A DNA stretch of 64,000 nt from Escherichia coli. GTDB lineage: Bacteria > Pseudomonadota > Gammaproteobacteria > Enterobacterales > Enterobacteriaceae. The notes under the pieces were generated by a model. The model worked only from the letters and a program-made list of their open reading frames with translations. It searched no databases and was not told the origin of the DNA. Shown in pieces: positions 39,197-64,000 of this stretch. A program made the translations under genes and the position numbers. Position 1 is the first letter of the stretch. Each line of letters begins with the position of its first letter. The stretch lies in the NCBI RefSeq assembly GCF_030013205.1, contig NZ_CP122648.1, one strand, 5' to 3'.

Positions 39197-39209
39197 AATT
39201 CATATCAAC

Positions 39210-39234
39210 GGACCTCCACGGAGGTCCGTTTTTC
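39210..39234 (+). terminator. pheU intrinsic terminator
   Basis: ggacctcc/ggaggtcc hairpin followed by GTTTTT immediately after the tRNA. Confidence 0.7.
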
Positions 39235-39393
39235 GTTTCAGAACACCATGATTTAAGTGTTCTTCCTCCAAATCAATTCTACCGAACTCAACCAAATTCT
39301 CCCCACATCAACCTCATTGTGTGGGTATAATTGCGGGTATACCCCAGTTCGACAGAATTTATACCCTCTTTAACGCATTCAGAAGGCTGAACT

Positions 39394-40656
39394 ATGGCAC
39401 TGACTGACGCAAAAATCCGGGCTGCAAAGCCCACTGACAAGGCTTATAAACTCACTGACGGGGCCGGCATGTTCCTGCTGGTTCATCCTAATGGTTCCCG
39501 TTACTGGCGTCTCCGCTATCGTATTCTGGGTAAGGAGAAGACTCTGGCACTTGGTGTGTATCCAGAAGTTTCTCTCTCCGAAGCTCGTACAAAACGGGAT
39601 GAGGCCCGAAAACTGATTTCAGAGGGGATTGACCCTTGCGAACAGAAAAGAGCTAAAAAAGTTGTCCCTGATTTACAGCTCTCTTTTGAACATATTGCAC
39701 GACGCTGGCATGCCAGTAATAAACAATGGGCACAATCACACAGCGATAAAGTACTCAAAAGCCTCGAGACACACGTTTTCCCCTTTATCGGCAACCGGGA
39801 TATCACAACACTCAGTACCCCGGACCTGCTTATCCCTGTTCGTGCTGCAGAAGCTAAACAAATTTATGAAATCGCCAGTCGTCTGCAGCAAAGAATATCT
39901 GCTGTAATGCGTTATGCCGTACAGTCTGGCATCATCAGATATAACCCGGCTCTGGATATGGCTGGTGCATTGACCACGGTAAAACGCCAGCATCGCCCTG
40001 CACTGGATCTTTCACGCCTGCCTGAACTTCTGTCGCGTATTGACGGTTATAAAGGCCAGCCTGTCACCCGACTGGCAGTTATGCTGAATTTACTGGTTTT
40101 TATTCGTTCCAGTGAACTCAGATACGCCCGCTGGTCTGAAATTGATATTGACAATGCCATGTGGACTATTCCAGCCGAACGCGAACCTCTGCCTGGCGTA
40201 AAATTCTCACACCGGGGCTCCAAGATGCGAACACCACATCTTGTGCCACTCAGCAAACAGGCTGTAGCCATACTGGCAGAACTACAGACATGGGCTGGTG
40301 AAAATGGTCTGATCTTTACGGGAGCACATGACCCGCATAAACCAATCAGTGAAAATACTGTAAATAAAGCCCTGAGGGTGATGGGGTATGACACAACCCA
40401 GGATGTCTGTGGCCATGGATTCCGTGCGATGGCATGTAGTGCGCTGATCGAATCAGGTTTGTGGTCCCGCGATGCTGTTGAACGTCAGATGAGCCATCAG
40501 GAACGTAACGGTGTACGCGCTGCGTATATCCATAAAGCCGAACATCTGGAAGAACGCCGGCTGATGCTACAGTGGTGGGCAGATTTTCTGAATGCGAACA
40601 GAGAGAAATGTATCAGTCCGTTTGATTATGCAAAGATCAACAATCCATTAAAATAG
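39394..40656 (+). CDS. P4-type tyrosine integrase
   Basis: 420-aa ORF MALTDAKIRAAKPTDKAYKLTDGAGMFLLVHPNGSRYWRLRYR with C-terminal catalytic region (HGFRAMA, Y in RAAYIH); 200 bp downstream of a tRNA gene; SD GAAGG. Confidence 0.92.
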   Translation: MALTDAKIRAAKPTDKAYKLTDGAGMFLLVHPNGSRYWRLRYRILGKEKTLALGVYPEVSLSEARTKRDEARKLISEGIDPCEQKRAKKVVPDLQLSFEHIARRWHASNKQWAQSHSDKVLKSLETHVFPFIGNRDITTLSTPDLLIPVRAAEAKQIYEIASRLQQRISAVMRYAVQSGIIRYNPALDMAGALTTVKRQHRPALDLSRLPELLSRIDGYKGQPVTRLAVMLNLLVFIRSSELRYARWSEIDIDNAMWTIPAEREPLPGVKFSHRGSKMRTPHLVPLSKQAVAILAELQTWAGENGLIFTGAHDPHKPISENTVNKALRVMGYDTTQDVCGHGFRAMACSALIESGLWSRDAVERQMSHQERNGVRAAYIHKAEHLEERRLMLQWWADFLNANREKCISPFDYAKINNPLK

Positions 40657-40819
40657 TAATAATCCCCGGGCAAAATGCCCGGGGTACTTTGAATGACTAT
40701 TTTTCTTTGGGCGTGATGAAGAAGATTGATGGTAAGACAAATTACTCCCGACTCTTACGTATTTTCATGGAAAGAAATCCCCCAATATCATCCATCGGGA
40801 TCGAGTAATAACCTGTAAT

Positions 40820-41005
40820 ATGCTGCAGGTTCCGACAGCGGCGGCAAATATGCAGCACATATTGTGCTCACTGATCGGCACCTGCCGTCTGAACAATGCG
40901 GAGTCAGAAAAATTGCTGCATTACGTCACAGATCATATGCAGGACTGGTCGGCAAACCGGGTACGCGATCTGTTGCCCTGGAAAGTTGATCTGACCTCTC
41001 AGTAA
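40820..41005 (+). pseudogene. IS66-family transposase C-terminal fragment
   Basis: 61-aa ORF LIGTCRLNNAESEKLLHYVTDHMQDWSANRVRDLLPW, paralogous to the C-terminus of the fragment at 41730-42251. Confidence 0.6.
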
Positions 41006-41069
41006 ATATCAATACGGTTCTGGCGAGCCGCTTACAATCGAACTGGGATACAGGGAGATAAAACAGACG

Positions 41070-41429
41070 ATGCAACTGAGCAGGCTGACGCTGAGAAGTA
41101 AAAAGCCGGAGCTTGTGGAGCAAGAGCTGTGGGGTGTCTTACTGGCTTATAATCTGGTGAGATATCAGATGATTAAAATGGCGGAACATCTGAAAGGTTA
41201 CTGGCCGAATCAACTGAGTTTCTCAGAATCATGCGGAATGGTGATGAGAATGCTGATGACATTGCAGGGCGCTTCACCGGGACATATACCGGAGCTGATG
41301 CGCGATCTTGCAAGTATGGGACAACTTGTGAAATTACCGACAATAAGGGAAAGGGCCTTCCCGAGAGTGGTAAAGGAGAGGCCCTGGAAATACCCCACAG
41401 CCCCGAAAAAGAGCCAGTCAGTTGCTTAA
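41070..41429 (+). pseudogene. transposase C-terminal fragment, IS4-like (family uncertain)
   Basis: 119-aa ORF with EQELWGVLLAYNLVRYQM motif recalled from IS4-family transposase C-termini. Confidence 0.45.
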
Positions 41430-41753
41430 CTGACTGGCATTAGGCCGCCGGGGGCGTTTTTTTACCACCGGGACTTCGGACATAACGGTGTTTTCAGTAA
41501 GTACGACAGGTACTGTGGAGGCACTCCCGTAAAGACGGGCATCAAGTTCCCGCTCCGACATACCTGCGGGCAGAGGCCATGAAAGGCCAGCTTTTCGGAA
41601 GCGCACGAACATACCACAAACTGTTGATTTTGGTACGCCCAGGCGACGTCCGGCCACAATCCGTGGTAAATGTTCTTCAAAGTGAAGACGTAAAGCTTCA
41701 GTGATCCAGGTCCGGTATTCCATACGATAGTGTCCATTAAAAATGATGGACAT
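41418..41753 (-). pseudogene. transposase N-terminal HTH fragment (family not assigned)
   Basis: 111-aa ORF with helix-turn-helix-like segment RRLGVPKSTVCGMFVRFRKAG; truncated. Confidence 0.35.
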
Positions 41754-42251
41754 TATTTTTGTGGAGCCGGAGGAAACACACCAGACTGTTTAAATGAGCC
41801 GGTTACCGAAATACGCGGGTTGCCGGTGTCTGAACGCCTGGCGGTCAGGCAAATGCAGAGTAAACCGCTACTGACTTCCCTGTATAAGCTGATGCAGGAG
41901 AAAGAACACACATTATCGAAAAAATGCCGTCTGAGAGATGCGTTCCGGTATATCCGGAAGCACTGGGTTGCGTTGTGCAACTTCTGTGATGATGGTCTGG
42001 CGGAGGCGGATAATAATGCCGCGGAAAGAGCGCTTCGTGCAGTCTGTCTCGGAAAGAAAAACTTTATGTTCTTCGGCAGCGATCACGGCGGCGAGCGAGG
42101 AGCACTGTTGTACGGGCTGATCGGCACCTGCCGACTGAACGGTATCGATCCGGAAGCGTATCTGCGCCATATCCTGAGCGTACTGCCGGAATGGCCTTCC
42201 AACCGAGTTGACGAACTCCTGCCATGGAACGTAGTACTCACCAATAAATAA
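41730..42251 (+). pseudogene. IS66-family transposase (TnpC) C-terminal fragment
   Basis: 173-aa ORF ending NNAAERALRAVCLGKKNFMFFGSDHGGERGALLYGLIGTCRLNGIDPEAYLRHILSVLPEWPSNRVDELLPWN, the conserved IS66 TnpC C-terminal signature; lacks the N-terminal catalytic part. Confidence 0.7.
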
Positions 42252-42385: not shown

Positions 42386-43714
42386 ATGAGCCACAGGGAA
42401 TTGTTCAGCGAATTTCTTGAAAATTTGAATCTTGACCTCAAACAGGCAAAAAAGATCAGCTATCACTATCGAAAAATAACCAAGTCATTAAATCTTGCGT
42501 TCAGAGGAACGAGTTCCCGGGTAGCAAACCGCTTGAAAGTGGGGTCAGTAGGCAGACATACCGCAATAAAAGGCATATCCGATCTGGATATGCTTTATAT
42601 TATGCCCCCCAATCAGTATGAATATTATAACCGTAAGGATAATGGTCAGTCTGCATTGCTTACAGATGTCAGAAACATTCTGGCGGAAGAATATCCTGAC
42701 CAGACTGTGAAAAAGGACAGACTGGTTGTTCAGATCATCTTTAAAAACTTTTATGTCGAGGTTCAACCTGTATTCAGACAGGATGATGACAGCTTTAAAT
42801 TCCCTGAAAGCTATAATGGAGGAGCATGGCGCATTACAAAACCTCTTCACGAAAAGGCGGCCATGACCGCATTTTCGCGAGATAAATCCAATAATCTGCG
42901 CAAGCTGTGTAAAATGATCAGAGCCTGGAAGAACCTGCATGGCGTCAATATGGGTGGCTTACTGATAGACACACTAGCGTATCGCTTTCTTTCATCAACA
43001 TCAGATTATGACAATACCGGAAATGGCAGCCTGGGAGCCCTCGCCAGAGACTTTTTTGAATATCTGTCAAATGAGGAGAGAAAGGAAAGGTATCTCGCGT
43101 TAGGCAGTAATCAGCATGTACGTGTTAAATCTCCCTGGTTTGGCCGGGCAGCGAAACACGCGTATGAATTATGTTGTGATGCCTTAGACGCTGAGGGGGC
43201 TGCCAGTGAAAATGACCGCTGGCGCAAAGTGTTCGGACGAGCCTTCCCCAGACGTAAAGTGGGTATTATGGAAGCCCGTCTTGGTCTGGAATCGCATGCG
43301 GCAGATGCTGTTCCCTGGACCGATACCGAAGAGTTTATAGAGGATAAATATCCGGTGGATATCAGGTACTCACTCAACCTTGACTGTACCGTAACCCAGG
43401 ATGGTTTCCCTCCCAGAAGCCTGAGGGAGATGCTTACCAGAAGATTCCGCCTCTCCGCTCGAAAATCTCTCCTTTTCCGGGCAGACTTGACAGAAATGGA
43501 GGCAGAGGAACCCTACACCGTTATGTGGAAGGTACTGAACGTGGGTGACGAAGCACGCAGAAGAAATATGATCCGGGGACAAATCGTTTCGGACGGCGGC
43601 TACTGTACGAAGAAAGAAACTACCGACTTCCGCGGAGATCACATGGTAGAATGCTATGTGATAAAAAATGAGGTTGTGGTTGCCCGGGCCCAGATTGAAG
43701 TTCCCATAAGCTGA
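42386..43714 (+). CDS. polymerase-beta-superfamily nucleotidyltransferase, SMODS/CD-NTase-like (candidate signalling nucleotide or oligonucleotide synthase)
   Basis: 442-aa ORF with SD AAAGGAA; NTase signature G-S-x10-D-L-D (GSVGRHTAIKGISDLD) near the N-terminus; stop overlaps the SD of the next gene. Confidence 0.6.
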   Translation: MSHRELFSEFLENLNLDLKQAKKISYHYRKITKSLNLAFRGTSSRVANRLKVGSVGRHTAIKGISDLDMLYIMPPNQYEYYNRKDNGQSALLTDVRNILAEEYPDQTVKKDRLVVQIIFKNFYVEVQPVFRQDDDSFKFPESYNGGAWRITKPLHEKAAMTAFSRDKSNNLRKLCKMIRAWKNLHGVNMGGLLIDTLAYRFLSSTSDYDNTGNGSLGALARDFFEYLSNEERKERYLALGSNQHVRVKSPWFGRAAKHAYELCCDALDAEGAASENDRWRKVFGRAFPRRKVGIMEARLGLESHAADAVPWTDTEEFIEDKYPVDIRYSLNLDCTVTQDGFPPRSLREMLTRRFRLSARKSLLFRADLTEMEAEEPYTVMWKVLNVGDEARRRNMIRGQIVSDGGYCTKKETTDFRGDHMVECYVIKNEVVVARAQIEVPIS

Positions 43715-43721
43715 GGTTTTT

Positions 43722-44297
43722 ATGACGCAATCAGAGATGCTGAAATTAATCGCCCGACATGGTTATAACGTTGGATTTGGCGCTAAGAAAAACTTTGCCA
43801 CCTATGATCTGATTTGTAAGGCATCCGGTTGGATTAGCTTTATTTCTCTTGCTGTCGGTGTGTTCGCCCTTTTTATTCCTGAGCTGGCCACAAACGTCAT
43901 TTCCGCGATATTAATTATATTTGGTGTTGCTACAATGTACATTCAGTTTTATGACTCGGAAAAGCAGAGTTATGAAAGTGCGGGGATTGAGCAGACCAAA
44001 ATTTTTAATGAACTTGAAGTCATCTACCGCAACGTAAAAAGCGATGCAAACTTTGACTATCAGCGTACACAACAATCCATCGACGCTATCATGTCCCGGT
44101 TTTACGGCACGGTCATCAGCAAACAGATCTTCGGAAGTAACTGGTACGCACATTATAAATTTTACTGTGAATTTGAAAAAGCATGGGTTGAAGAAGAGCT
44201 GAACCTGACACTGAAGGACAAAATCCCGCTTTCGCTCTGCTTTCTCGCCGGTCTGGCGATCATTTTTACTATAGCTGTCATCTGGAAAACGCCCTGA
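43722..44297 (+). CDS. 2-TM membrane protein, SLATT-like candidate effector
   Basis: 191-aa ORF starting 8 nt after the NTase stop; two adjacent hydrophobic helices (ISFISLAVGVFALFIPELATNVISAILIIFGVATMYI) plus a C-terminal hydrophobic segment. Confidence 0.6.
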   Translation: MTQSEMLKLIARHGYNVGFGAKKNFATYDLICKASGWISFISLAVGVFALFIPELATNVISAILIIFGVATMYIQFYDSEKQSYESAGIEQTKIFNELEVIYRNVKSDANFDYQRTQQSIDAIMSRFYGTVISKQIFGSNWYAHYKFYCEFEKAWVEEELNLTLKDKIPLSLCFLAGLAIIFTIAVIWKTP

Positions 44298-44848: not shown

Positions 44849-45574
44849 TTATGATGTACATAATACCTTAAAATTATCAACTAGCTGAGCATTAACCTCC
44901 ATCTGACTAATCCCCCATAATGCGGCTAACTGTTTCTCTGCAATCCCACTATCCCATGGCATTAGTGGGTCATTACGAAACTTAGCAAATGGCCCATCTG
45001 TTTCTGTAAGAATGCGTGATTTGGGTATTTTCAAAACTAAGGCCTTACCCTTTATTGTATCGAGCATAGCAGGCCCCACTGAGAACCAGCATCCTAAATC
45101 AATTGCCCTTTCAAGCTGCTTAGGTGTTCCAGTGAACCAATGCAATATTGCCACCCCATCGATATTTTCAATCTCATCAAGCACCGCTGATGCACTTCCC
45201 CGACTATGGATAGTCATAATCTTGCCACCAGCCCGATTTACACTGTTGAGAATGTGTCGGAACACTTTCAATTGAATATCCCAATGTTCTTTAAATCCCT
45301 GTCCACCATCAAGCCCTATTTCCCCTACATACTTAGTTTCCGAAAGCAATGAATCAAACAGGTCTAACTCATGCGATCTTTGATGCGCGATTTGAGGATG
45401 TAGCCCAAGAGCAGTTCGGATTCGTTGACTTTCTTTAGCCAATAAAGAAGTACCATGCCATGCTTTAGGTGTTGTTGTCACCGACAGAATATAAGTCCCT
45501 CGACGTTTACTTTCTTCAGCCACGAGGTCTGGCCGAGGATATAAGTCTAGATGACAGTGCATATCGATGCTCAT
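44849..45574 (-). CDS. qatD: QatD-like TatD-family metal-dependent hydrolase
   Basis: 241-aa ORF beginning MSIDMHCHLDLYP (TatD HxH motif); ATGA overlap with upstream qatC. Confidence 0.8.
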   Translation of the reverse strand: MSIDMHCHLDLYPRPDLVAEESKRRGTYILSVTTTPKAWHGTSLLAKESQRIRTALGLHPQIAHQRSHELDLFDSLLSETKYVGEIGLDGGQGFKEHWDIQLKVFRHILNSVNRAGGKIMTIHSRGSASAVLDEIENIDGVAILHWFTGTPKQLERAIDLGCWFSVGPAMLDTIKGKALVLKIPKSRILTETDGPFAKFRNDPLMPWDSGIAEKQLAALWGISQMEVNAQLVDNFKVLCTS

Positions 45575-46890
45575 ACTATGTTCTCACTCAGTAAATAGCT
45601 TTCAACCTCATCCAGGCCATCCTTAAATACTTGCTTGAAATTATCAAATTCTGCCGTAGGCAAAGGGCCACTTTTGGCAATCCATGTACCTATTTTCAAA
45701 GTCGATTTCTGCGTGATCGCAATCCTAAGGGCGATCAGGTCGTCCCTGCGATCTATTTCATTCATTACTTTAGCTAAGGACTGGAAAATATATTCAACAT
45801 CTCTACTAATTCCCCCTGCATGAAGTGATGCTCGTCGAATGATACACGGTATACATACCCCACATTGCTGCCCCATTCGTTTCCAATGACTGCAGGATAC
45901 TGTACTTTCCACAATTTTAGATAAGAGCTGCTTATTTGAACATTCGGAGATCATTTTTCCTTTTGTCTTAAACTGATATGGATTGATTATTTGACAAGAA
46001 ATACCGAGCGCATCAAAGATCTTTTGTATGCTCGTAATAAAATGTGGATGTGTTGTTCGTGTGCTCAGCGAACCTATCCGCCGTGGAGTAAGTGGTGCAT
46101 TTAATGAGATAAATCCATTTTCAGGTACGAACAAATCAATCTTTTCTTGTTGAGATATCTCTTGTACGGCACAAGCACCTACGGCCGCAAAGGCAAGAAA
46201 ATTGAGGCTACGAGTTCGCATCGTAATATCAGTCACGCCTTGATAAATGTGTGGGTCAGCATTAATCTCAAAGCGCGAAAATTGGCCACTTAATTTTTCA
46301 GCAATCTGATCTTGACGAGACTTATCCCCCTTATAAGCATGACTAACCAAAAGTGGAGCGCGCCCTGCAGCCAGAAGATCTATTGCACCAATAGCTGAAT
46401 CCAGACCTCCTGAAAATAGGCTGACACAGTCAAGCCCTTTTAGCTTAATCAGACGATGCCTTGAATGCTGGCTATAAGGCTCTGGCGGTGCATAACCATC
46501 GTCACAAAATTCGAAATCCCAGATGTCTCCACTAAGAAAATGCAAAGCACTCTCAAGTTCTTTCTTTAGACTAATCCATCTGGATGGTTCATGAAGGGGG
46601 AGTCGTAACGACAATTGGCGGGTCCAACCATCCTCGGAACTTTCACGCTGAACGAAAGTATCTGCTGCAGTTACTGCTAATGCAACACTCAGAAAATCCA
46701 TGACCTTAGCTGGAAGCTGTACTCCCAAACGTCTGATCCGATCAATCGCAGGATTCCCGATAACAGATATATCTCCGCGCCTCTGACCACTTAATCCATA
46801 TAGCTGAACAGGTAACACTTTCTCACTTGCTGGCGGCAAATGGTGATGTTTATGATGGAAAACTAATTGTGTCACTGGTATGCCTCCCAT
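45571..46890 (-). CDS. qatC: QatC-like QueC-family PP-loop ATPase
   Basis: 439-aa ORF with PP-loop SGGLDS (DCVSLFSGGLDSAIGAIDLL); overlaps qatB by 19 nt. Confidence 0.8.
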   Translation of the reverse strand: MGGIPVTQLVFHHKHHHLPPASEKVLPVQLYGLSGQRRGDISVIGNPAIDRIRRLGVQLPAKVMDFLSVALAVTAADTFVQRESSEDGWTRQLSLRLPLHEPSRWISLKKELESALHFLSGDIWDFEFCDDGYAPPEPYSQHSRHRLIKLKGLDCVSLFSGGLDSAIGAIDLLAAGRAPLLVSHAYKGDKSRQDQIAEKLSGQFSRFEINADPHIYQGVTDITMRTRSLNFLAFAAVGACAVQEISQQEKIDLFVPENGFISLNAPLTPRRIGSLSTRTTHPHFITSIQKIFDALGISCQIINPYQFKTKGKMISECSNKQLLSKIVESTVSCSHWKRMGQQCGVCIPCIIRRASLHAGGISRDVEYIFQSLAKVMNEIDRRDDLIALRIAITQKSTLKIGTWIAKSGPLPTAEFDNFKQVFKDGLDEVESYLLSENIV

Positions 46891-47624
46891 TCTTGCCAGG
46901 CCTCAATAATGGCCTGACGTTCAATTTTTACCATTTGGTTTCGTGTGAACGATCTTATGTTACCGGCAAGTTTTGGTGCCATATGTTTATCAACAACAAC
47001 TTTAATCAATTCCCGGAGTTCAATTTCTGCATGAATTGCCTTTGAAGGTGTATCTGCTTTGTTCCATGCCCTATTAGAATCCATTACCATCTGAAGGAAA
47101 ATACTTTCCGCTAGATAACCAATCATTGTGTCAACAATCACACCATCAGTTATTTTTTGAGGATCGAAAATTTCTACGCCATCAAGAGCCTCCACTAAAG
47201 CATGGTTCATGGCCGCACAGATCTTTTCTGAGTCACCATCCTGTGATGTTAAAGCTTGAGCAATAGTTGATATTGCTATTTCGCATGGAAGGCCTGCCAA
47301 ACTGCCCAAATCGATGCTTGGTTCTCCGGGAGCCGAAGGCATTCCCACTAAAGCCCCAAATAATTCGGCCCCAGCTTGCGTGACACTCCCTAATCGCCGA
47401 GCAGCGTTACTGCTCCCTCCGGAGGCTTTTCGCGCGTAGTGCCCTATGGCTTTTCTGAAATCTGCTCGATTTCCATTTGATACCGCATTTCCCAACGATT
47501 CTCGAAATGGCGCAAACCTCCTTTCTTGCGGCGAGGGTAACGGTTGCTGTGGCTGATCATCAGCCCATGGTGGAACCAGCGGAGAGCCACCTCCTGGACC
47601 TTTACTTGATTGTGATGTTCCCAT
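46872..47624 (-). CDS. qatB: QatB-like protein (no recognisable domain)
   Basis: 250-aa ORF whose ATG overlaps the qatA stop (TAATG); position between KAP NTPase and QueC-like genes. Confidence 0.7.
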   Translation of the reverse strand: MGTSQSSKGPGGGSPLVPPWADDQPQQPLPSPQERRFAPFRESLGNAVSNGNRADFRKAIGHYARKASGGSSNAARRLGSVTQAGAELFGALVGMPSAPGEPSIDLGSLAGLPCEIAISTIAQALTSQDGDSEKICAAMNHALVEALDGVEIFDPQKITDGVIVDTMIGYLAESIFLQMVMDSNRAWNKADTPSKAIHAEIELRELIKVVVDKHMAPKLAGNIRSFTRNQMVKIERQAIIEAWQEWEAYQ

Positions 47625-49408
47625 TAAGCGTCCTTATTCCATTGTTCATCTTTTAATGCTGCAGTCATCCACGCTGGTCGTTTCATCCCCAACTGTAATT
47701 CCTGTAGATAACGAATTAATATGCTGGCTGCATCTGTTGAGTAGCGGGCCAACAGACATGCGCCGGAAAAGCCTCTGGGCTTACGATCCCAATCTGATAC
47801 CTGCCGTAACTGGTTAATTAAACCTTCCATTACAGGTATTTGCTCCTCACGAGGAAGTGCTTTCAAAAGGTTTTCTGCTGTAGGAGAACTAGTGTTTTTC
47901 AATTCAATTAGTGCATTTAGTACTTCCCGTCCAGATGGCGATAAACCAACCACATATGCACCTATTGGCATAGTTTCTCGGGACAGATATATGGCGGCCC
48001 TTAAGTCAATCCCACCAAGACGAGGTTCAAGTTGGGCCCATTGACTGATGAAAGATTTAGTCGTTGGACTATCAGTCCATGTCTTTGGTGCATCAGTAGG
48101 TATTTGACCGCCATTATCGTCAAGCTGTTTAAGTATCTGGGGAACACCTTGTTCAATATCCACGAGATGATATAAATCAGCGGTGCCATCCACTCCAACA
48201 CAGCGTTCAAAAATTACTAGCTTAGTAATAATTGCTTCATCCAAAGGCATTGCTCGTCGCTTCGCAATTTGAGATCGCATTTTCACAACATTCAACAAGC
48301 GTTTAACGATCCTGGGATTACCATGAATAATTGGAGAGTTGGCTAAAATGGGAGCAATACGGTCAGCACGCGCAAACGCCAGCGCGAGGTTGCTATCATC
48401 CGCTTCACCAGTCATTTTTAAGGCCTCCTGACGTGAGATTGGTTCATCTTTCCAGGATTGCTGTAACGCCTTCTCTAAGCCCTCACGGAGCATAGTTATT
48501 TTTTCGCCTTCTAAGCCATGTTCAATGGCATAAAGCATGAACAGATACGAACGGATCTCACGGACCCCAGCCTTAGGCACCCGAATAGGAACCTGGATTA
48601 GCTTATCCAGATAATCTATTTGATGGCGCTGTGATGCCCCTTTGAAGTAATCAGCCACAGAAGAGCGAATCATGTCCTCATCTGCTGCAATAATAAAGGC
48701 TGTATTAGTCAAGAAAAGGAATAGCCTGATAGCTTCAAGTGTATGGATAGCATTGGCAGGGAGACAGCGGTCTAGGTTATCTATTACCACAATGAGTGGC
48801 TTTCCAAGTTCTTCTAGAATTTCCCCATATTCCTTACGAAAGGCATCAATCTGCTGAGGGGGGCTTTTTTTTGTTTGTGGTTTAATCAAACCACAAGCAG
48901 TTTCTTTACCTTCTTTAGCTATATTGCCTAAAGCCTCATACTCTTCCTGACTCTGGATGCCATCGGTGATATTTCTTAATGCACCAATCCCCCTAGAAAG
49001 CAAACCGCCAGTAGGTAATCCTGCCATTAAAGCTGTACCCTCAGCTAGTAATCCCATAGCTCTAAAACCATCAACTCGACTAAGGAGTCTCTTAGTTTTT
49101 GATATAAGGGTAGAATTACCTTCAGCAGCTTTTGTCAATTCTGTAGCGATGACTTCAAGAAGTGCGGCACGGGCGTCGTCGTACCCCTGATAGAGCCAAG
49201 AGTCAAAATTGATAACAATCCAATCTTTGTCGTCTTGCTCAAGTTTTTGCTCTATCAGTTTTAACAGAGAGGATTTACCTGCCCCCCAGTTTCCAAAAAT
49301 TCCGATAGATACTGGTAACATATCTTTCGTGGTAAGTACATCCACGGCTAACTGAGATACTTCACCAAAATTTAGGTAGTCTTCTGATGACTCTTTGTCT
49401 GACCACAT
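47624..49408 (-). CDS. qatA: QatA-like KAP-family P-loop NTPase
   Basis: 594-aa ORF with Walker A GNWGAGKSS near the N-terminus and Walker B-like VVIDNLDRC; SD AAGGA upstream of ATG at 49408. Confidence 0.8.
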   Translation of the reverse strand: MWSDKESSEDYLNFGEVSQLAVDVLTTKDMLPVSIGIFGNWGAGKSSLLKLIEQKLEQDDKDWIVINFDSWLYQGYDDARAALLEVIATELTKAAEGNSTLISKTKRLLSRVDGFRAMGLLAEGTALMAGLPTGGLLSRGIGALRNITDGIQSQEEYEALGNIAKEGKETACGLIKPQTKKSPPQQIDAFRKEYGEILEELGKPLIVVIDNLDRCLPANAIHTLEAIRLFLFLTNTAFIIAADEDMIRSSVADYFKGASQRHQIDYLDKLIQVPIRVPKAGVREIRSYLFMLYAIEHGLEGEKITMLREGLEKALQQSWKDEPISRQEALKMTGEADDSNLALAFARADRIAPILANSPIIHGNPRIVKRLLNVVKMRSQIAKRRAMPLDEAIITKLVIFERCVGVDGTADLYHLVDIEQGVPQILKQLDDNGGQIPTDAPKTWTDSPTTKSFISQWAQLEPRLGGIDLRAAIYLSRETMPIGAYVVGLSPSGREVLNALIELKNTSSPTAENLLKALPREEQIPVMEGLINQLRQVSDWDRKPRGFSGACLLARYSTDAASILIRYLQELQLGMKRPAWMTAALKDEQWNKDA

Positions 49409-52142: not shown

Positions 52143-52194
52143 AACGAAATCCCTGCCGGCAATCACACTGCCTGATGGCAGCATAATCCACTTA

Positions 52195-52428: not shown

Positions 52429-52523
52429 TCCCGTTTCCTTAGCACATATTTTCAGGCACGGGGATAAAGTATAAAGAATGTCGTACTGCTGCTGCCAGAG
52501 CAATATTCCCCCTGATGGTTGTA

Positions 52524-53183: not shown

Positions 53184-53456
53184 AACTTTATCAGTCCATA
53201 AGAATCAACGGAAGCACCGATGGTTCACTTGGTCATCGCCAAGTTTTGCCATAACCGGTAGCAATGATCATTCTGTGTAACTATTTGGCCCACAGATGAT
53301 GATGTTTATCGATGTCTCCTCTGTCTGAATGTCGCATAAAGAGGATCATCAGCAGACACAGCCAGTGAACCACCGTCCGCGGAACAAAGCGCCGGACCAC
53401 ATCCGGATCCGGCAGGGACATGACTGGCATGATCAAGTAATTATGTCGCATCTCCC

Positions 53457-53870
53457 TCACTCCTGGTCCCGGAGCAAATCTGGCTGGTATCTGTAAACAT
53501 ACTTCGTACATGCCGCTCTGCAATAAATCCCCGTATCACAGGTTTCACAGAACTTCTTCCCATGAAAAAGCCTCTCGCACATCACGCAATGCCACTCCAG
53601 CACGACAGGTAATGGCGATAAAAACATCGCCATATCATCAATGTAAGGATGGGATTTTTCCGGATTCAGCACCACGCAGGCCGCCTTCTGTTGCGCGCTC
53701 AGGGCATGTAAATCATGCTCAAACCACGCCCCCTGAGCATCTGTCTGCAAAATCAACCGGCCACGACAGGAAAGGCAGAAACACTGCCGGATATTTCTGC
53801 TGAGCGCAGAGTTGGCACTGATAATGTGCTCACCCGGCGTGATCCCCAGCCCCATTTTTATGCCGTTCAT
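53457..53870 (-). CDS. hypothetical cysteine-rich (zinc-ribbon-like) protein
   Basis: 137-aa ORF with CxxC pairs (CFCLSC, CVMCERL, CETCDTGIYCRAAC); ATGA-type 4-nt overlap with upstream gene. Confidence 0.5.
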   Translation of the reverse strand: MNGIKMGLGITPGEHIISANSALSRNIRQCFCLSCRGRLILQTDAQGAWFEHDLHALSAQQKAACVVLNPEKSHPYIDDMAMFLSPLPVVLEWHCVMCERLFHGKKFCETCDTGIYCRAACTKYVYRYQPDLLRDQE

Positions 53871-54256
53871 CCTGCTACCACCTCCTCACTGAAGCGCCCG
53901 GTCTGGCAGTGTGTGCAGTACTGCTCCCCATAATAATCGTGGTGACATTGTCTGCAGTACCAGCTGGCTTTACGTACTACGGGTAAGGCATCCGGTACGA
54001 ATTGCTGCAGACGTTTAATCAAACGTATTTCTCTGCGTTCCGGTCTGACATAAGGGCACTCATGACCGTGCTCAGTCAGCCCATCGTCAGTGTGTTCAAA
54101 CCAGGGACGTTCAGTGTCGTATTGCGGGTGGTATCTGAGTGCACTGCCACAAAGATGACAGGTATAACGATCATATGGCGCAGTCTGTGCGGTACGGGCA
54201 CCGGTCAGACGTCCGTTGCCATCAAATGCGAGAAAAGATTTTGCGTACATAGTCAT
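53867..54256 (-). CDS. hypothetical cysteine/histidine-rich (zinc-ribbon-like) protein
   Basis: 129-aa ORF with CHLCGS, HECPY, CRQCHHDYYGEQYCTHCQTG motifs. Confidence 0.5.
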   Translation of the reverse strand: MTMYAKSFLAFDGNGRLTGARTAQTAPYDRYTCHLCGSALRYHPQYDTERPWFEHTDDGLTEHGHECPYVRPERREIRLIKRLQQFVPDALPVVRKASWYCRQCHHDYYGEQYCTHCQTGRFSEEVVAG

Positions 54257-54509: not shown

Positions 54510-55079
54510 TCAACTCCGGCTACAGCCAAAATTACGCTCACCGGTACCGTTGACTTTGGTGTACTCTTTCGCGAGATAGTCAGCACGGTTCAGCATATCC
54601 CGTAAACCAGCATCATCATCGCGTTCCAGCCACACCACCGGCCTGGCCGGAAAATGCACCAGCGTGGCATAGCATCCGGCATCCACCCCCAGGGCACTGC
54701 ACCACGCCTGTTTAATCATCCCGGCCAGTGACCCCGGATCGCGGTAATCGCCCGCACCACACCAGGTATCACGGTTGACCAGCAGTATCAGGTGATAGTG
54801 TTTTTTACCCCTGAGCACCCCGAATTCCCGGGCCCAGACGTAATGCAGCCTTGTGGTATGTACGCGTTTACCTTCACGGCGCTTACGCTTCTGGTAAGCA
54901 TCGATTCGGGCTTTCAGGGCATTGATGAAGCGGGATATCACTGCTGCGTCAGTTGCTGCCGGTACATCCGGGAGACGCAGGTCAACCCGCAATGCCGTCA
55001 GACGGGGATGAACATCAAGTGCGCGCAGCACCGTCTCACGGATACGTTGTTGCCAGAAGGGTTTGTACTCGTGTGTCAT
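54510..55079 (-). CDS. YfjJ/YagK-family (inovirus Gp2-like) protein
   Basis: 189-aa ORF; sequence and length recalled as matching the YagK/YfjJ family of CP4-type cryptic prophages. Confidence 0.7.
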   Translation of the reverse strand: MTHEYKPFWQQRIRETVLRALDVHPRLTALRVDLRLPDVPAATDAAVISRFINALKARIDAYQKRKRREGKRVHTTRLHYVWAREFGVLRGKKHYHLILLVNRDTWCGAGDYRDPGSLAGMIKQAWCSALGVDAGCYATLVHFPARPVVWLERDDDAGLRDMLNRADYLAKEYTKVNGTGERNFGCSRS

Positions 55080-55818: not shown

Positions 55819-56031
55819 TCAGGTGACATATTTCCAGACGGAAGCCGGCACGCGATCATAAAGTTTGTTCATCGTCAGTTCTGCCAGCCGGTGATCGACC
55901 GCAGAGTTGAAAGCTTCCAGCTCCGCAGGGGTAAGTTTATAACGCGTGTGGGAAATCACTTTTTCCAGTGTCTCCCGGGATGAACAACGACGGAACTGAT
56001 ACAGCCAGTCTTCTTTGGTTTTAACTTCCAT
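55819..56031 (-). CDS. hypothetical small protein
   Basis: 70-aa ORF with SD GAGAGG 3 nt upstream of ATG. Confidence 0.45.
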   Translation of the reverse strand: MEVKTKEDWLYQFRRCSSRETLEKVISHTRYKLTPAELEAFNSAVDHRLAELTMNKLYDRVPASVWKYVT

Positions 56032-56733: not shown

Positions 56734-56940
56734 ATGAATATCCCAGTTTCACTGATGGATGACCAGATGGTCGACATGGCGTTTATCACTCAACTGACCG
56801 GCTTAACCGATAAGTGGTTTTACAAGCTCATCAAGGATGGTGCCTTTCCAGCCCCCATCAAACTCGGCCGCAGCTCCCGATGGCTGAAAAGTGAAGTGGA
56901 AGCCTGGTTGCAGGCGCGTATTGCTCAGTCCCGTCCGTAA
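56734..56940 (+). CDS. AlpA-family prophage transcriptional regulator
   Basis: 68 aa from internal ATG at 56734 with SD AAGGAA; HTH region FITQLTGLTDKWFYKLIKDGAFPAPIKLGRSSRWLKSEVEAWL typical of AlpA/Xis-like regulators. Confidence 0.75.
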   Translation: MNIPVSLMDDQMVDMAFITQLTGLTDKWFYKLIKDGAFPAPIKLGRSSRWLKSEVEAWLQARIAQSRP

Positions 56941-57712: not shown

Positions 57713-59287
57713 TTATGACCGAAAGAATTGCTCTTTCCATTCTCTCAGTTTCTGGCTGTGATAGCCCTGCTCGTAACACGCCTTCAACTCAGAGAACGTG
57801 ATATTGTTTACTCTGGAAAGCAGGACATAGGTTGTTTTACCTTCTCTCTCAAAGGAAAGCTTTAACTGAGACGCAAGAATGTTCAACAGTGCGTTCAGTT
57901 TTTTTCTGTTTCTGAAACGCCCCGGGCCACACTGGAGAATATAATTTTTCCTGACACGAGGCGGGCATTCTCCGCGGCACTCCTCAATGAGCCAGTCGAG
58001 CAGCTCCTGTGCGTCCTGCAGCTGCAGTTCAGATTCATCAGGTAACGCAAATAATTTTTTATATTCATCTGTGTACCACGAACTTATTACGACAGCAGAC
58101 GTCATGATATCGGCAGTAATTTTCCCTTCCCCCTGACTGAAATACTGCAATAATGCAGCAATTCTCGCAATGTTTTCTGTTTTTTTTGAAACATGTCCCC
58201 GAAACGCACTTAACGGACCGGAAGGAGATAAATCCTGCTCAAGAACATTATAGTGCTCAATAAATATTTTTTGCGCTTCAGGCGAAAAATGCAGACAATA
58301 CCGTTCATCCTTACTGGATTTTTCAATACTGGCTCTGGCCAGTTCCATTAATCGTTCATGAAATGCCGTTAACGATCCTCCCGGGGTCACAGCTCCGTTA
58401 ATAAAGCGTTTCCCCTGCGTGCTTGCAGGTTTACTGATAAGGCAACGGGCAAGAAAACCACTGTCTCTGGCAACAGCACCTTTTCGCTCCATATATCGGT
58501 CAAAAAGACCGGGTTGCACCATGAGGGATAACGTCATTCTGGCATTTTCAATCATCTGTTCGGGTTCATTCTTTCTGTCCACAGACAACACTGAGCCATC
58601 CCACATTTTGTTAATAAAAGGCAACTCAGACAGGGTATATCCATCAAATATAATACCAGCTTCATCTGACATAATACCAACTGAACGCCATTTACCACAA
58701 AGCTGATTCTTAATTGCCGCAGTCGTGGCATCATTAACAATGAATTTATACCTCACAGGTTCTTCCGCACTGTTTTTCTGAAGTACTTCCAGTTGTCTGA
58801 GGGTTTCTGACTCATCCGCGCCTTTGCGGAGTTCTTTATTCAGTTTTGACAACAATGCTTTTTTCTGAGCCTTTAAAAGCTCTTCCTTGTTTTTCCAGAC
58901 AGCCAGTTCACTTTTGTATCTGGAATATAACTGCATCTCCTGCTGGTACAGGGGCTTCATTAATAATTTGTCCACTGCGGTTTTTCGTTCTCCGGACTCG
59001 GCAAGCGTCAGGAAAAAAAGAGAAACCGGCCCCCGCAGTGTATTCAGTCTGCAGACATCAATCAGATTCTGGCAGACAAGTGAAACAGCGCCCAGTGCAG
59101 ATGCTGCCACAAGCCCAAGGGGAGCCTGCGTAATTTGCTGAGCTTCAATAACGGCATCACGAATGAGTGGAGGCAGCGAACTCAGGGGGAACTCATCACA
59201 AGGCTGACCGAATGACATAGTAACCTCACTACATACAGATATAAAAGCACTGCAATTTTGGCTATTAATAGCAAAAATAGCAGTCAA
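57713..59287 (-). CDS. YfjI-like protein of CP4-57-type prophages (DUF3987-like)
   Basis: 524-aa ORF; family assignment from recall, start codon uncertain (alternative Met 23 codons in). Confidence 0.55.
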   Translation of the reverse strand: MTAIFAINSQNCSAFISVCSEVTMSFGQPCDEFPLSSLPPLIRDAVIEAQQITQAPLGLVAASALGAVSLVCQNLIDVCRLNTLRGPVSLFFLTLAESGERKTAVDKLLMKPLYQQEMQLYSRYKSELAVWKNKEELLKAQKKALLSKLNKELRKGADESETLRQLEVLQKNSAEEPVRYKFIVNDATTAAIKNQLCGKWRSVGIMSDEAGIIFDGYTLSELPFINKMWDGSVLSVDRKNEPEQMIENARMTLSLMVQPGLFDRYMERKGAVARDSGFLARCLISKPASTQGKRFINGAVTPGGSLTAFHERLMELARASIEKSSKDERYCLHFSPEAQKIFIEHYNVLEQDLSPSGPLSAFRGHVSKKTENIARIAALLQYFSQGEGKITADIMTSAVVISSWYTDEYKKLFALPDESELQLQDAQELLDWLIEECRGECPPRVRKNYILQCGPGRFRNRKKLNALLNILASQLKLSFEREGKTTYVLLSRVNNITFSELKACYEQGYHSQKLREWKEQFFRS

Positions 59288-60402: not shown

Positions 60403-61275
60403 ATGAATCCGTCTGATGCCATTGAGGCAATTGAAAAACCGCTCTCCTCCCTGCCTTATTCGCTTTCCCGTCACATCCTGGAACATCTGCGTAAACTCAC
60501 CAGCCACGAACCCATGATTGGCATTATGGGGAAAAGCGGGGCCGGTAAATCCTCACTCTGTAATGCGCTGTTTCAGGGGGAGGTCACCCCGGTCAGTGAT
60601 GTTCACGCCGGCACCCGGGAAGTGCGGCGCTTCCGTCTGAGTGGCCACGGTCACAGCATGATTATCACTGACCTGCCCGGGGTGGGCGAGAGCCGGGACA
60701 GGGATGCAGAGTATGAAGCCCTGTACCGTGACATTCTGCCTGAACTTGACCTGGTACTGTGGCTGATTAAAGCCGATGACCGTGCCCTGTCTGTGGATGA
60801 GTATTTCTGGCGACACATCCTGCACCGGGGACATCAGCGGGTACTGTTTGTGGTGACGCAGGCCGATAAAACGGAGCCCTGCCATGAATGGGATATGGCC
60901 GGTATTCAGCCTTCTCCCGCACAGGCACAGAACATTCGCGAAAAAACGGAGGCGGTATTCCGTCTGTTCCGGCCCGTACATCCGGTTGTGGCCGTATCGG
61001 CCCGCACCGGCTGGGAACTGGATACGCTGGTCAGCGCGCTCATGACAGCACTTCCCGACCATGCCGCCAGTCCCCTGATGACCCGCCTGCAGGACGAGCT
61101 GTGCACGGAATCTGTCCGGGGGCAGGCCCGTGAACAGTTTACCGGTGCGGTGGACCGGATATTTGACACGGCGGAGAGCGTCTGTGTTGCCTCTGTTGCA
61201 CGCACGGTTCTGCGTGCCGTCCGTGACACGGTGGTCTCTGTTGCCCGCGCGGTATGGAACTGGATTTTCTTCTGA
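60403..61275 (+). CDS. YeeP/YkfA/YfjP-family GTPase
   Basis: Start at MNPSDAIEAIEKPLSSLPYSLSRHILEHLR; P-loop GIMGKSGAGKSSLCNALF, DLPGVGE G3 motif; immediately upstream of antigen 43 as in CP4-44. Confidence 0.8.
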   Translation: MNPSDAIEAIEKPLSSLPYSLSRHILEHLRKLTSHEPMIGIMGKSGAGKSSLCNALFQGEVTPVSDVHAGTREVRRFRLSGHGHSMIITDLPGVGESRDRDAEYEALYRDILPELDLVLWLIKADDRALSVDEYFWRHILHRGHQRVLFVVTQADKTEPCHEWDMAGIQPSPAQAQNIREKTEAVFRLFRPVHPVVAVSARTGWELDTLVSALMTALPDHAASPLMTRLQDELCTESVRGQAREQFTGAVDRIFDTAESVCVASVARTVLRAVRDTVVSVARAVWNWIFF

Positions 61276-61393
61276 ACAGTCTGCCAGGGAAATGCCTGAT
61301 TACATTACGTTAACCAACTGAAAACATGACACAAACACCTCATACTCCTCCTGTTTCTCTTGCATGACTGCCTCGTCATTAATAGAATAAAAC

Positions 61394-61429
61394 GATCGAT
61401 AAAACAGGTATCGATCGCCATCATCGATC
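61394..61429 (+). promoter_or_regulatory. antigen 43 phase-variation switch (three GATC Dam sites in the OxyR-binding region)
   Basis: GATC at 61394, 61413 and 61426, each within CGATCG, about 220 bp upstream of the flu start codon. Confidence 0.75.
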
Positions 61430-61646
61430 GTTTATAGTGGTTAATGACCTGCGAAAAGGCAGTTGATTCTCTTCATCATGCAGAACGGAATTGCACACAA
61501 CGGACTGATGCTTCTCTGGCGGATGAGAGAGGGGAAGCATTTATGTCCGAGAAAAACCACTTTATCTGACCATGCTGTTTTGTACCTGCCGGTATCCACA
61601 TTTGTGGGTACCGGCTTTTTTATTCACCCTCTGTAAGGAAAAGCTG

Positions 61647-64000
61647 ATGAAACGACATCTGAACACCAGCTACAGGCTGGTATGGAATCACATTACGGGC
61701 ACCCTGGTGGTGGCTTCCGAACTGGCCCGCTCACGGGGGAAACGTACTGGCGTGGCGCTGGCGCTGTCTCTTGCCACCGCCACTTCAGTCCCGGCCCTGG
61801 CTGCTGACAGTGTTGTACAGGCAGGGGAAATCGTGAACGGCGGGACACTGGTAAATCATGACAACCAGATTGTCTTCGGTACGACCAACGGAATGACCAT
61901 CAGTACCGGGCTGGAGTATGGGCCGGATAACGAGGCCAATACCGGCGGGCAATGGGTACAGGATGGCGGCACAGCCAGTAATACCACCATCAGCAACGGC
62001 GGGCTCCAGTTTGTAGGTGCCGGGGGAAAGGCTACAGACACAATAATCAATGAAGGAGGCGGACAAAGTCTGAAGGGACTGGCACTGAACACCACGCTGA
62101 ATGGTGGCGAGCAGTGGATGCATGAAGGTGCGATAGCCACAGGAACCGTCATTAATGATAAGGGCTGGCAGGTCGTCAAACCCGGCGCAGTGGCAACAGA
62201 CACCGTTGTGAATACCGGCGCAGAAGGAGGACCGGATGCAGAAAATGGTGATACCGGGCAGTTTGTTCGCGGAAATGCCGTACGTACCACTATCAATAAA
62301 AATGGTCGTCAGATTGTGGTAGCCACCGGAGTGGCAAACACCACGGTGGTTTATGCCGGCGGCGACCAGACGGTACATGGCCACGCACTGGATACCACGC
62401 TGAATGGCGGTAACCAGTATGTGCACAACGGCGGTACAACGTCTGACACTGTTGTGAACAGTGACGGCTGGCAGATTATCAAGGAAGGTGGTCTGGCGGA
62501 TTTCACCACCGTTAACCAGAAAGGCAAACTGCAGGTGAACGCCGGTGGTACAGCCACGAATGTCACCCTGAAGCAGGGCGGCGCACTGGTCACCAGTACT
62601 GCTGCAACGGTTCTTGGCAGCAACCGTCTGGGGAATTTCACGGTGGAAAACGGTAAGGCTGACGGCGTTGTTCTGGAGTCCGGCGGTCGCCTGGATGTAC
62701 TGGAGGGCCATTCAGCGCAGAATACCCTGGTGGATGACGGCGGTACCCTGGCAGTGTCTGCCGGTGGTAAGGCAACAGATGTCACCATGACATCCGGTGG
62801 TGCCCTGATTGCAGACAGTGGTGCCACTGTTGAGGGGACCAATGCCAGCGGTAAGTTCAGTATTGATGGCATATCCGGTCAGGCCAGCGGCCTGCTGCTG
62901 GAAAATGGCGGCAGCTTTACGGTTAATGCCGGGGGACAGGCCGGTAACACCACTGTCGGATATCGTGGAACACTGACGCTGGCTGCCGGGGGAAGTCTGA
63001 GTGGCAGAACACAGCTCAGTAAAGGTGCCAGCATGGTACTGAATGGCGATGTGGTCAGTACCGGCGATATTGTTAACGCAGGGGAGATTCGCTTTGATAA
63101 TCAGACAACACCGGATGCCGCGCTGAGCCGTGCTGTTGCAAAAAGTAACTCCCCGGTAACGTTCCATAAACTGACCACCAGTAACCTCACCGGCCAGGGC
63201 GGCACCATCAATATGCGTGTCAGCCTTGATGGCAGTAATGCCTCAGACCAGCTGGTAATTAATGGTGGTCAGGCAACCGGCAAAACCTGGCTTGCGTTCA
63301 CAAATGTCGGAAACAGCAATCTCGGGGTGGCAACCTCCGGACAGGGTATCAGGGTTGTGGATGCACAGAATGGCGCCACCACAGAAGAAGGTGCGTTTGC
63401 CCTGAGTCGCCCGCTTCAGGCCGGCGCCTTTAACTACACCCTGAACCGTGACAGCGATGAAGACTGGTACCTGCGCAGTGAAAATACTTATCGTGCTGAA
63501 GTCCCCCTGTATGCCTCCATGCTGACACAGGCAATGGACTATGACCGGATTCTGGCAGGCTCCCGCAGCCATCAGACCGGTGTAAGCGGTGAAAATAACA
63601 GCGTCCGTCTCAGCATTCAGGGCGGTCATCTCGGGCACGATAACAACGGTGGTATTGCCCGTGGGGCCACGCCGGAAAGCAGCGGCAGCTATGGCTTCGT
63701 CCGTCTGGAGGGTGACCTGCTCAGAACAGAGGTTGCCGGTATGTCTCTGACGACAGGGGTGTATGGTGCTGCAGGCCATTCTTCCGTTGAAGTTAAGGAT
63801 GATGACGGCTCCCGCGCCGGCACGGTCCGGGATGATGCCGGCAGCCTGGGCGGATACCTGAATCTGGTACACACATCCTCCGGCCTGTGGGCTGACATTG
63901 TGGCACAGGGAACCCGCCACAGCATGAAAGCGTCATCGGACAATAACGACTTCCGCGCCCGGGGCTGGGGCTGGCTGGGCTCACTGGAAACCGGTCTGCC
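61647..64000 (+). CDS. flu: antigen 43 autotransporter adhesin (N-terminal 784 codons; continues beyond window)
   Basis: ATG at 61647 with SD AAGGAA; MKRHLNTSYRLVWNHITGTLVVASELARSRGKR extended signal peptide, repetitive beta-helical passenger (GG/TxT repeats), autochaperone region RAEVPLYASMLTQAMDYDR; no stop before window end. Confidence 0.92.
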   Translation, partial: MKRHLNTSYRLVWNHITGTLVVASELARSRGKRTGVALALSLATATSVPALAADSVVQAGEIVNGGTLVNHDNQIVFGTTNGMTISTGLEYGPDNEANTGGQWVQDGGTASNTTISNGGLQFVGAGGKATDTIINEGGGQSLKGLALNTTLNGGEQWMHEGAIATGTVINDKGWQVVKPGAVATDTVVNTGAEGGPDAENGDTGQFVRGNAVRTTINKNGRQIVVATGVANTTVVYAGGDQTVHGHALDTTLNGGNQYVHNGGTTSDTVVNSDGWQIIKEGGLADFTTVNQKGKLQVNAGGTATNVTLKQGGALVTSTAATVLGSNRLGNFTVENGKADGVVLESGGRLDVLEGHSAQNTLVDDGGTLAVSAGGKATDVTMTSGGALIADSGATVEGTNASGKFSIDGISGQASGLLLENGGSFTVNAGGQAGNTTVGYRGTLTLAAGGSLSGRTQLSKGASMVLNGDVVSTGDIVNAGEIRFDNQTTPDAALSRAVAKSNSPVTFHKLTTSNLTGQGGTINMRVSLDGSNASDQLVINGGQATGKTWLAFTNVGNSNLGVATSGQGIRVVDAQNGATTEEGAFALSRPLQAGAFNYTLNRDSDEDWYLRSENTYRAEVPLYASMLTQAMDYDRILAGSRSHQTGVSGENNSVRLSIQGGHLGHDNNGGIARGATPESSGSYGFVRLEGDLLRTEVAGMSLTTGVYGAAGHSSVEVKDDDGSRAGTVRDDAGSLGGYLNLVHTSSGLWADIVAQGTRHSMKASSDNNDFRARGWGWLGSLETGL

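Follow-up and report, generated by a model that had tools for sequence, protein, structure and literature searches.

The pheU gene of Escherichia coli, one of its tRNA-Phe genes, is a classic site for pathogenicity islands: PAI-II of strain CFT073, SHI-3 and variants of the enterocyte effacement locus (LEE) have all been found there (PMC7545054). The related GI-pheV islands are modular: intP4 is their sole conserved gene, a 'flu' and a CP4-44-like 'yee' module are among their modules, and their 23-bp repeats include the very same imperfect right attachment site (attR) that is discussed below, TTCGATTCCGAGTCCGG-CACCA (Nhu et al. 2024, PMC11537424). The survey of Hochhauser, Millman and Sorek (2023, PMC10121019 supplement) also counts the chromosomal interval between yjdC and cadC at tRNA-Phe as defence hotspot #38, 53 of 915 genomes having defence systems there. 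Wu et al. (bioRxiv 10.1101/2022.08.21.504612) report a non-random co-occurrence and co-localisation of type I cyclic oligonucleotide-based antiphage signaling systems (CBASS) with qatABCD in E. coli. Here we analyze a 64,000-nucleotide stretch of E. coli contig NZ_CP122648.1 (assembly GCF_030013205.1; hereafter the window), in which the DNA from position 39197 to the end very probably represents the first 24.8 kb of an integrative island of the intP4 GI-pheU/GI-pheV family, carrying defence cargo, a CP4-like backbone and the adhesin antigen 43 (Ag43).

The island shares with the GI-pheV/GI-pheU family its insertion at the 3' end of tRNA-Phe, a P4-type integrase beside the tRNA, 23-bp repeats, an identical imperfect attR and modules bounded by insertion sequences (IS), flu and yee among them. 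It differs in carrying type I CBASS and Qat in place of fimbriae, siderophores, toxins or LEE, in its small size (31 kb), and in being confined mostly to pig-associated enterotoxigenic and Shiga toxin-producing E. coli (ETEC and STEC; 20 of the 5426 complete E. coli genomes that form our comparison set, searched by megablast with positions 39100-64000). Like the islands of hotspot #38 it is a mobile defence island at a tRNA gene, and at the same chromosomal site, whereas the published entry is a statistical listing of the site without the anatomy of this island. In agreement with the pairing of Wu et al., CBASS and qatABCD are adjacent and convergent here and occur together in 229 of the 5426 genomes (segment 42300-52500 at no less than 80% coverage and 99% identity); in E. 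coli the block is, moreover, always accompanied by a gene for a 400-residue orphan protein, of which we found no mention in the passages of that preprint consulted. The backbone resembles prophages CP4-57 and CP4-44 of strain K-12 in a similar order of alpA-like, yfjI, yfjJ, yeeP/yfjP, isrC and flu, as well as yfjQ, an antirestriction gene, yeeS, yeeT and cbeA/cbtA. The K-12 elements, in contrast, have ssrA as their integration site, or none, their integrase IntA is only 36% identical to that of the island, and CP4-57 carries abpAB and rnlAB as defence cargo where the island has CBASS and Qat. The element is already known in kind and offers little discovery value as such, since publications exist on the site and the island family as well as on the two defence systems and their pairing.

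Insertion at pheU and the ends of the island

The open reading frames (ORFs) upstream of the tRNA-Phe gene encode DsbD and the TetR-family regulator DicD/YjdC. Since dsbD and dicD precede the tRNA as they do in K-12, where the gene order is dsbD-dicD-pheU-yjdQ (a pseudogene)-cadC, the locus is pheU. The insertion lies at the 3' end of the tRNA gene, with core genome on the other side, and the last 23 nt of the tRNA form the core of the left attachment site (attL; Table 1). The adjoining gene encodes a P4-type integrase with a complete domain set and every catalytic residue in place (R238, K277, H341, R344, H368 and Y378), and to judge from these features the enzyme looks active. Related integrases (92-97% nucleotide identity) adjoin pheU or pheV in approximately 2069 genomes.

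An earlier, sequence-only reading of the window had placed the right boundary of the island outside it and proposed to search for a repeat of the pheU 3' end by extending the sequence. This search succeeded in the porcine strain ETEC4079, an essentially identical genome whose match to the megablast query is 100% identical. Its attR, TTCGATTCCGAGTCC-GGCACCA, is a 22/23-nt repeat of the tRNA-Phe 3' end that lacks one G; it lies 31,165 bp downstream of attL, and the DNA beyond it aligns base for base with the pheU-yjdQ-cadC segment of K-12. The island therefore measures 31.1-31.2 kb, so that the size of at least 24.8 kb proposed earlier holds as a lower bound and falls short of the full length.

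The same reading had core synteny stopping exactly at the tRNA. This is accurate for the recombination core, namely the last 23 nt of the tRNA, but similarity to the K-12 empty site continues for about 115-190 nt beyond the tRNA in occupied genomes. The apparent extension arises because the left end of the island resembles the native DNA downstream of pheU (the yjdQ fossil segment): the left arm is 89% identical over 140 nt to native pheU-downstream DNA that now lies to the right of attR.

The native spacer between pheU and cadC, which includes K-12 yjdQ (43263-43720 in locus L001, right of attR), itself retains about 140 nt of an integrase upstream region together with pieces of an integrase 3' end, all 73-90% identical to the integrase region of the present island. 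Similarity to both parts marks this E. coli spacer, that of K-12 included, as the fossil of an older, related integrase or island.

Distribution and probable site-specific mobility

A search with the empty site of K-12 showed pheU to be unoccupied in 3703 of the 5426 genomes, K-12 itself providing a clean empty site. At least 80% of the region is found in one place in only 20 genomes, most of them from pigs or pork. In strain ETEC1703 the whole island, with the same integrase protein accession, lies at the second tRNA-Phe gene, pheV, between yqgA and yghD, and in strain STEC384 the island is likewise at pheV. The comparison of pheU and pheV loci suggested by the sequence-only reading was thus informative, and neither of the findings it had named as contrary to an integrated island, the same gene content in all relatives with no att repeat, or an inactive integrase in a region conserved across Enterobacteriaceae, was encountered.

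The pheV copy of ETEC1703 is collinear with the pheU copy and 99.90% identical to it, with 25 mismatches over 31.4 kb. Both copies end in ...GATAGAAGCATTC, followed by the tRNA 3' repeat and then by native pheU or native pheV DNA; in ETEC1703 the attR at pheV is a perfect 23-mer with native pheV DNA beyond it. The presence of the same island at pheU and pheV with identical ends argues for a footprint of recent site-specific, integrase-mediated insertion. A different route to this distribution would be an exchange of copies between the two sites by RecA-dependent homologous recombination or generalised transduction through the identical tRNA-Phe genes, independent of the integrase. Identity between the two sites does cover the tRNA, with similarity over the 48 nt upstream of it, and homologous recombination clearly shifts island modules between backbones at argW, pheU and pheV. 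At the right end, however, the homology between the sites consists of the 22-23-nt core alone, which is very little for RecA, and the flanks switch exactly there, as is the signature of site-specific recombination. We consider an exchange of this kind very improbable.

In an integrase-mediated insertion, the P4-type integrase would recombine the last 23 nt of tRNA-Phe, in a copy carried by the element, with the identical 23 nt of pheU. Integration would rebuild the tRNA at attL and leave the 22/23-nt repeat at attR near cadC; this catalysis, like excision of the island, is what we infer from the sequence. In a single pig ETEC/STEC population, one defence island is found at pheU as well as at pheV, which makes it a convenient system for measuring integrase-mediated mobility.

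In the pheV copy of ETEC1703 (locus L014), qatA is split into two coding sequences (19522-21305) and yfjI is frameshifted (29628-31132), indicating that single copies are decaying despite 99.9% conservation.

Two defence systems: CBASS and Qat

The number of defence modules had been given as two or three. Two are recognised, CBASS and Qat, and the third is not: PADLOC, applied to 20 island proteins, returned these two systems and otherwise only a weak, partial match of the orphan protein to PD-Lambda-4_B (E 4e-6).

The CBASS locus consists of an oligonucleotide cyclase whose active-site motif GS...DxD is present at residue 53 (GSx12DLD), and of a two-transmembrane (2TM) effector gene of the SLATT_6 family that starts 8 nt past the cyclase stop codon. 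No Cap2/Cap3, HORMA/TRIP13 or Cap9/Cap10-type accessory genes were found nearby, the neighbors being an IS66 fragment and the convergent qatD. From this composition, the locus is predicted to be a minimal type I CBASS of cyclase and 2TM effector. By analogy with studied CBASS systems, the cyclase would make a nucleotide second messenger upon infection, and the SLATT effector would then damage the membrane and bring about abortive infection. A cyclase-SLATT pair that is 96.6% identical to this one is present, without Qat, on an 18.4-kb E. coli plasmid (NZ_AP045819.1), from which it follows that the CBASS pair can travel apart from the block.

The qatABCD genes (44849-49408, minus strand) are intact, co-directional and convergent with CBASS, with ORFs that overlap or abut, and the PADLOC matches are full length for all four proteins. 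QatB begins with MGTSQSS... and has PPW at residues 18-20, and the expected motif is likewise found in QatC (Table 1). In Pseudomonas aeruginosa, the N-terminal MGTS glycine motif of QatB and its Pro/Trp tail were shown to be essential (PMC13279940). If the present system works as in P. aeruginosa, QatC would act on QatB at its Gly2 N-terminus, and completion of the response would fall to the ATPase QatA and the nuclease QatD.

Exchange of defence cargo

The island is laid out as integrase-proximal cargo (approximately 40.7-52.35 kb) followed by a CP4-57/CP4-44-like backbone, and the two parts are separable among the genomes of the comparison set. Other settings of the CBASS-Qat block of about 10 kb include an argW island whose integrase is different and a site beside a grp/pdu island, and the backbone from position 52354 onwards is also found without the defence block. 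Position 51234, between the VasL fragment and the DUF4222 region, is a recurrent recombination or deletion breakpoint according to blastn comparisons. STEC384 has 5.46 kb of extra DNA at this position that is absent from the window, and in two other islands the surplus amounts to 0.2-0.5 kb. The insert of STEC384 encodes a NERD and UvrD helicase protein (PADLOC PDLC01087, E 1e-136) and a PD-Lambda-1-like GIY-YIG nuclease (E 1e-88), which are two further defence candidates that appear to have been deleted from the island in the window. In another relative, the Mokosh gene MkoC follows the integrase. The presence of alternative cargo in the same slots indicates that the integrase-proximal part is a swappable defence slot, of which the window holds a reduced version.

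Recombination in the backbone and IS sequences that the islands share is probably what carries the defence block from an island at one tRNA site to an island at another. A block of type I CBASS and Qat that is shuffled intact among islands with different integrases bears on how defence repertoires spread, and the island is also a possible substrate for testing cooperation between the two systems.

At the position of the IS debris that separates the integrase from CBASS in the window, STEC384 carries an IS2/IS3 insertion. A 53-nt direct repeat, 83% identical between its copies, lies just 3' of the integrase (40760-40812) and just downstream of qatD (44606-44658), and encloses the CBASS pair together with the IS debris. 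The repeat may be a scar left by the assembly of modules, in which case Qat may once have stood directly beside an integrase before CBASS and the IS elements entered.

Mobility and decay

The island could be a fixed fossil that was acquired once by an ancestor of the pig strains and can no longer be excised, its genes being hitchhiking remnants. An attR that matches at 22 of 23 nt, IS fragments beside the integrase, an internal 5.46-kb deletion relative to STEC384, the absence of transfer genes from the annotation and pseudogenisation in one copy would all suit such a history, and the older integrase fossil yjdQ at the native site shows that this fate is common. A fossil does not readily explain, however, how the same island, with only 25 mismatches, comes to be at pheU in some strains and at pheV in others, its ends falling precisely at the 23-nt core. 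Its integrase also retains all catalytic residues, the AlpA-like gene is intact, and the defence ORFs are all full length with their motifs. On balance, we regard a fixed fossil as unlikely.

Several observations weigh against our preferred reading of the region as a GI-pheU/GI-pheV island with mobile defence cargo. The evidence for mobility is comparative throughout. By analogy with other islands, the missing G in attR can cut excision frequency by orders of magnitude (PMC11537424, discussion), and no recognisable conjugation, mobilisation or packaging genes are present in the island. Decay is ongoing, as shown by the IS debris, by the loss of DNA at 51234 and by the ETEC1703 lesions in qatA and yfjI. 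As for the cargo, our literature search found no measured phage-defence phenotype for exactly this locus. The cyclase scores 100.2 against a cutoff of 200 with the NCBIfam model CBASS_cyclase_b, and its closest solved structure is a distant CdnD, in the alignment with which the third catalytic acidic residue is Glu, not Asp. QatA (385.8 vs 600) and QatB (74.6 vs 100) also score under the NCBIfam equivalog cutoffs, which is why RefSeq names only qatC and qatD at this locus. Because these three cutoffs are missed, membership in CBASS and Qat rests on PADLOC subfamily models and motifs. QatA and QatB belong, judging from their sequences, to a divergent subfamily that is covered by the PADLOC models PDLC02210 and PDLC02212.

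An orphan protein beside qatA

In E. coli, the gene for the 400-residue orphan protein is always found directly upstream of qatA inside the CBASS-Qat block. The protein has an N-terminal Cys/His cluster that resembles a zinc ribbon, an OB-fold-like core, an (AEV)n linker and a C-terminal helix. In the family alignment C33, C38, H63 and C67 are invariant, the core and the C-terminal helix are conserved, and the linker is variable and of low complexity. The linker is encoded by a perfect in-frame 9-bp variable-number tandem repeat (VNTR), TCAGCAACC, with 14.8 copies at 49628-49760; in ETEC4079 the VNTR is 63 bp (seven units) longer, for a gene of 1266 nt as compared with 1203 nt here. Gene lengths in other strains range from 1176 to 1302 nt, and the place of the linker is taken by (PE)n in other members of the family. 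Many database entries for this protein are labelled 'partial', probably as a result of assemblies that break in the repeat.

Searches with the orphan protein gave no Pfam match even at E 10 and no NCBIfam match, its single PHROG match falls within the repeat region, and the composition of PD-Lambda-4, the system to which PADLOC weakly links it, was not found in a literature search. The family is restricted to Enterobacterales and Aliivibrio; tblastn recovered distant homologues on Vibrio plasmids of about 60-70 kb (31% identity) and on one Yersinia plasmid, and none in phages. It is known only from islands and plasmids, with one member adjoining a type I restriction-modification system. Our best guess from the sequence is a role in nucleic-acid binding. 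Because the gene always travels directly upstream of qatA in E. coli, it might be a third, undescribed immunity factor of a single gene, or an accessory to immunity, that binds nucleic acid, though we think this quite unlikely; the weak PD-Lambda-4_B match, the restriction to islands and plasmids, the neighboring restriction-modification system of one member and the lack of phage homologues are hints in its favor. An accessory role specific to Qat is unsupported, as no linkage to Qat is seen for the homologues in Xenorhabdus, Providencia, Enterobacter and Yersinia.

The CP4-like backbone, IsrC and Ag43

Each element that the sequence-only reading had listed from the integrase to flu is present at or near the position it gave, both in our own scans and in the RefSeq annotation, and it was right, in line with what has already been published, to describe sites at tRNA-Phe and islands with P4-type integrases as hotspots of defence. 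The CP4-like remnant it proposed is borne out by tblastn against K-12 CP4-57 and CP4-44, which shows a comparable gene order, and by the identities of the YfjI, YeeP, Flu, YeeS and CbtA homologues to their K-12 counterparts (Table 1). In ETEC4079 the backbone continues beyond the window end with the rest of Ag43, DUF932, an antirestriction protein, RadC and DUF987, and further right with the YeeU/CbtA toxin-antitoxin pair (CbeA/CbtA), DUF5983, DUF957 and DUF4942, after which attR is reached.

Table 1. Features of the pheU island within the window, and backbone genes to the right of it.
Feature	Position	Strand	Basis
tRNA-Phe(GAA), pheU	39121..39196	+	ARAGORN; Rfam agrees; dicD/dsbD upstream
attL core, last 23 nt of tRNA-Phe, TTCGATTCCGAGTCCGGGCACCA	39174-39196	+	repeat analysis
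Island left arm: terminator-like hairpin and integrase upstream region	39197..39336	+	repeat search; three-way alignment
P4-type tyrosine integrase, 420 aa, intact	39394..40656	+	Arm-DNA-bind_3, Phage_int_M and Phage_integrase domains
IS debris: truncated IS66-family, IS4-family, IS66 TnpA and IS66 transposase fragments (four pieces)	40825..42251	.	RefSeq annotation of identical genome
Predicted type I CBASS oligonucleotide cyclase, SMODS and AGS_C sensor domain	42386..43714	+	PADLOC PDLC00796 E 9e-177; Pfam; PDB CdnD-like
Predicted CBASS 2TM effector, SLATT_6 family	43722..44297	+	PADLOC PDLC00695 E 2e-82; NCBIfam NF033630 223.8 bits (cutoff 100); hydrophobic segments
qatD, TatD-family nuclease, HCHLD motif (HxH)	44849..45574	-	PADLOC QatD E 6e-97
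qatC, QueC-like PP-loop protein, SGGLDS at residue 160	45571..46890	-	PADLOC QatC E 2e-140; PDB 9zee/9vlk E 3e-63
qatB, N-terminal MGTS motif and conserved Pro/Trp tail	46872..47624	-	PADLOC QatB E 9e-131; motif
qatA, KAP-family P-loop ATPase, Walker A at residue 39	47624..49408	-	PADLOC QatA 1133 bits, full length
Orphan 400-aa protein gene, 34.6% GC	49540..50742	-	ORF; family alignment
VasL-domain gene fragment	50981..51238	-	annotation
DUF4222 gene	51951-52142	+	annotation
Two small hypothetical genes	within 51951..54250	.	annotation
phrog_24243 protein	52524-53147	-	PHROGs
Two 'zinc ribbon' proteins	53457-53870 and 53867-54250	-	annotation
Inovirus Gp2-family / YfjJ-like protein	54510..55079	-	38% identity to K-12 YfjJ; phrog_25019
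Island-borne hha paralogue, Hha/YmoA nucleoid-associated modulator	55819..56031	-	RefSeq annotation mapped to window
AlpA-like helix-turn-helix protein, candidate excisionase/activator, intact	56734..56940	+	PHROG 'excisionase and transcriptional regulator' E 1e-9
YfjI-family (DUF3987) helicase-like protein	57713..59218	-	52% identity to K-12 YfjI; phrog_2373 DNA helicase E 1e-82
YeeP/YfjP-like GTPase	60403..61275	+	97% identity to K-12 yeeP remnant, 49% to YfjP; small-GTPase models
IsrC (Rfam IS102) small RNA and Ag43 regulatory region	61392..61628	+	Rfam RF00124 68.2 bits; alignment with K-12
Ag43/Cah-family autotransporter adhesin, first 784 of 948 codons, no stop, cut by window end	61647..64000	+	73% identity to K-12 Flu
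DUF932	outside window		K-12 YfjQ 74% identity
Antirestriction protein	outside window		K-12 YfjX 74% identity
RadC	outside window		K-12 YeeS 95% identity
DUF987	outside window		K-12 YeeT 96% identity
YeeU	outside window		K-12 CbeA 88% identity
CbtA	outside window		K-12 CbtA 92% identity

The P4-type integrase, the AlpA-like gene and the DUF3987 helicase-like gene raise the question of whether the island is a P4-like phage satellite that is mobilised by a P2-like helper phage and has its defence genes in a satellite hotspot, all the more as P4-like satellites are known to carry defence genes at tRNA sites (PMC10121019). Its size of 31 kb is, however, about three times that of P4 (approximately 11 kb), the annotation of the complete island includes no psu, sid, delta, epsilon, alpha primase or cos-associated genes, and PHROG scans of ten backbone proteins gave only helicase and excisionase families. 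The backbone is instead of the CP4-57/CP4-44 type, with Ag43 and a toxin-antitoxin pair. We rejected this identity, to which we attach hardly any credence, in favor of an integrative island of the GI-pheU/GI-pheV family.

The AlpA-like protein is only 25% identical to K-12 AlpA over 60 residues, and its candidate role derives from the PHROG families in Table 1. The hha paralogue could help in H-NS-type silencing of AT-rich cargo, the orphan gene having 34.6% GC as compared with 51% in the core genome. The backbone genes at 51951..54250 gave no PADLOC matches.

The order of the GTPase gene, IsrC and Ag43 is the same as in K-12. The Ag43 leader has a conserved promoter block and three GATC sites (61394-61429) that align with the Dam/OxyR switch region of K-12 agn43, and because both are kept as in K-12, Ag43 is likely to be phase-variable. 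Compared with K-12, 13 extra bases lie between the first two GATC sites.

The gap between yfjI and the GTPase gene (59219-60402) comprises 1.2 kb of unannotated DNA with a GC content of about 39-40%, approximately 88% conserved in the argW island; a permissive Rfam search over the unannotated backbone gaps at 50.7-60.45 kb, this one included, gave no match. Far upstream of the island, in ordinary core genome, the window also contains two tandem tRNA-Gly(GCC) genes on the minus strand (9949-10257).

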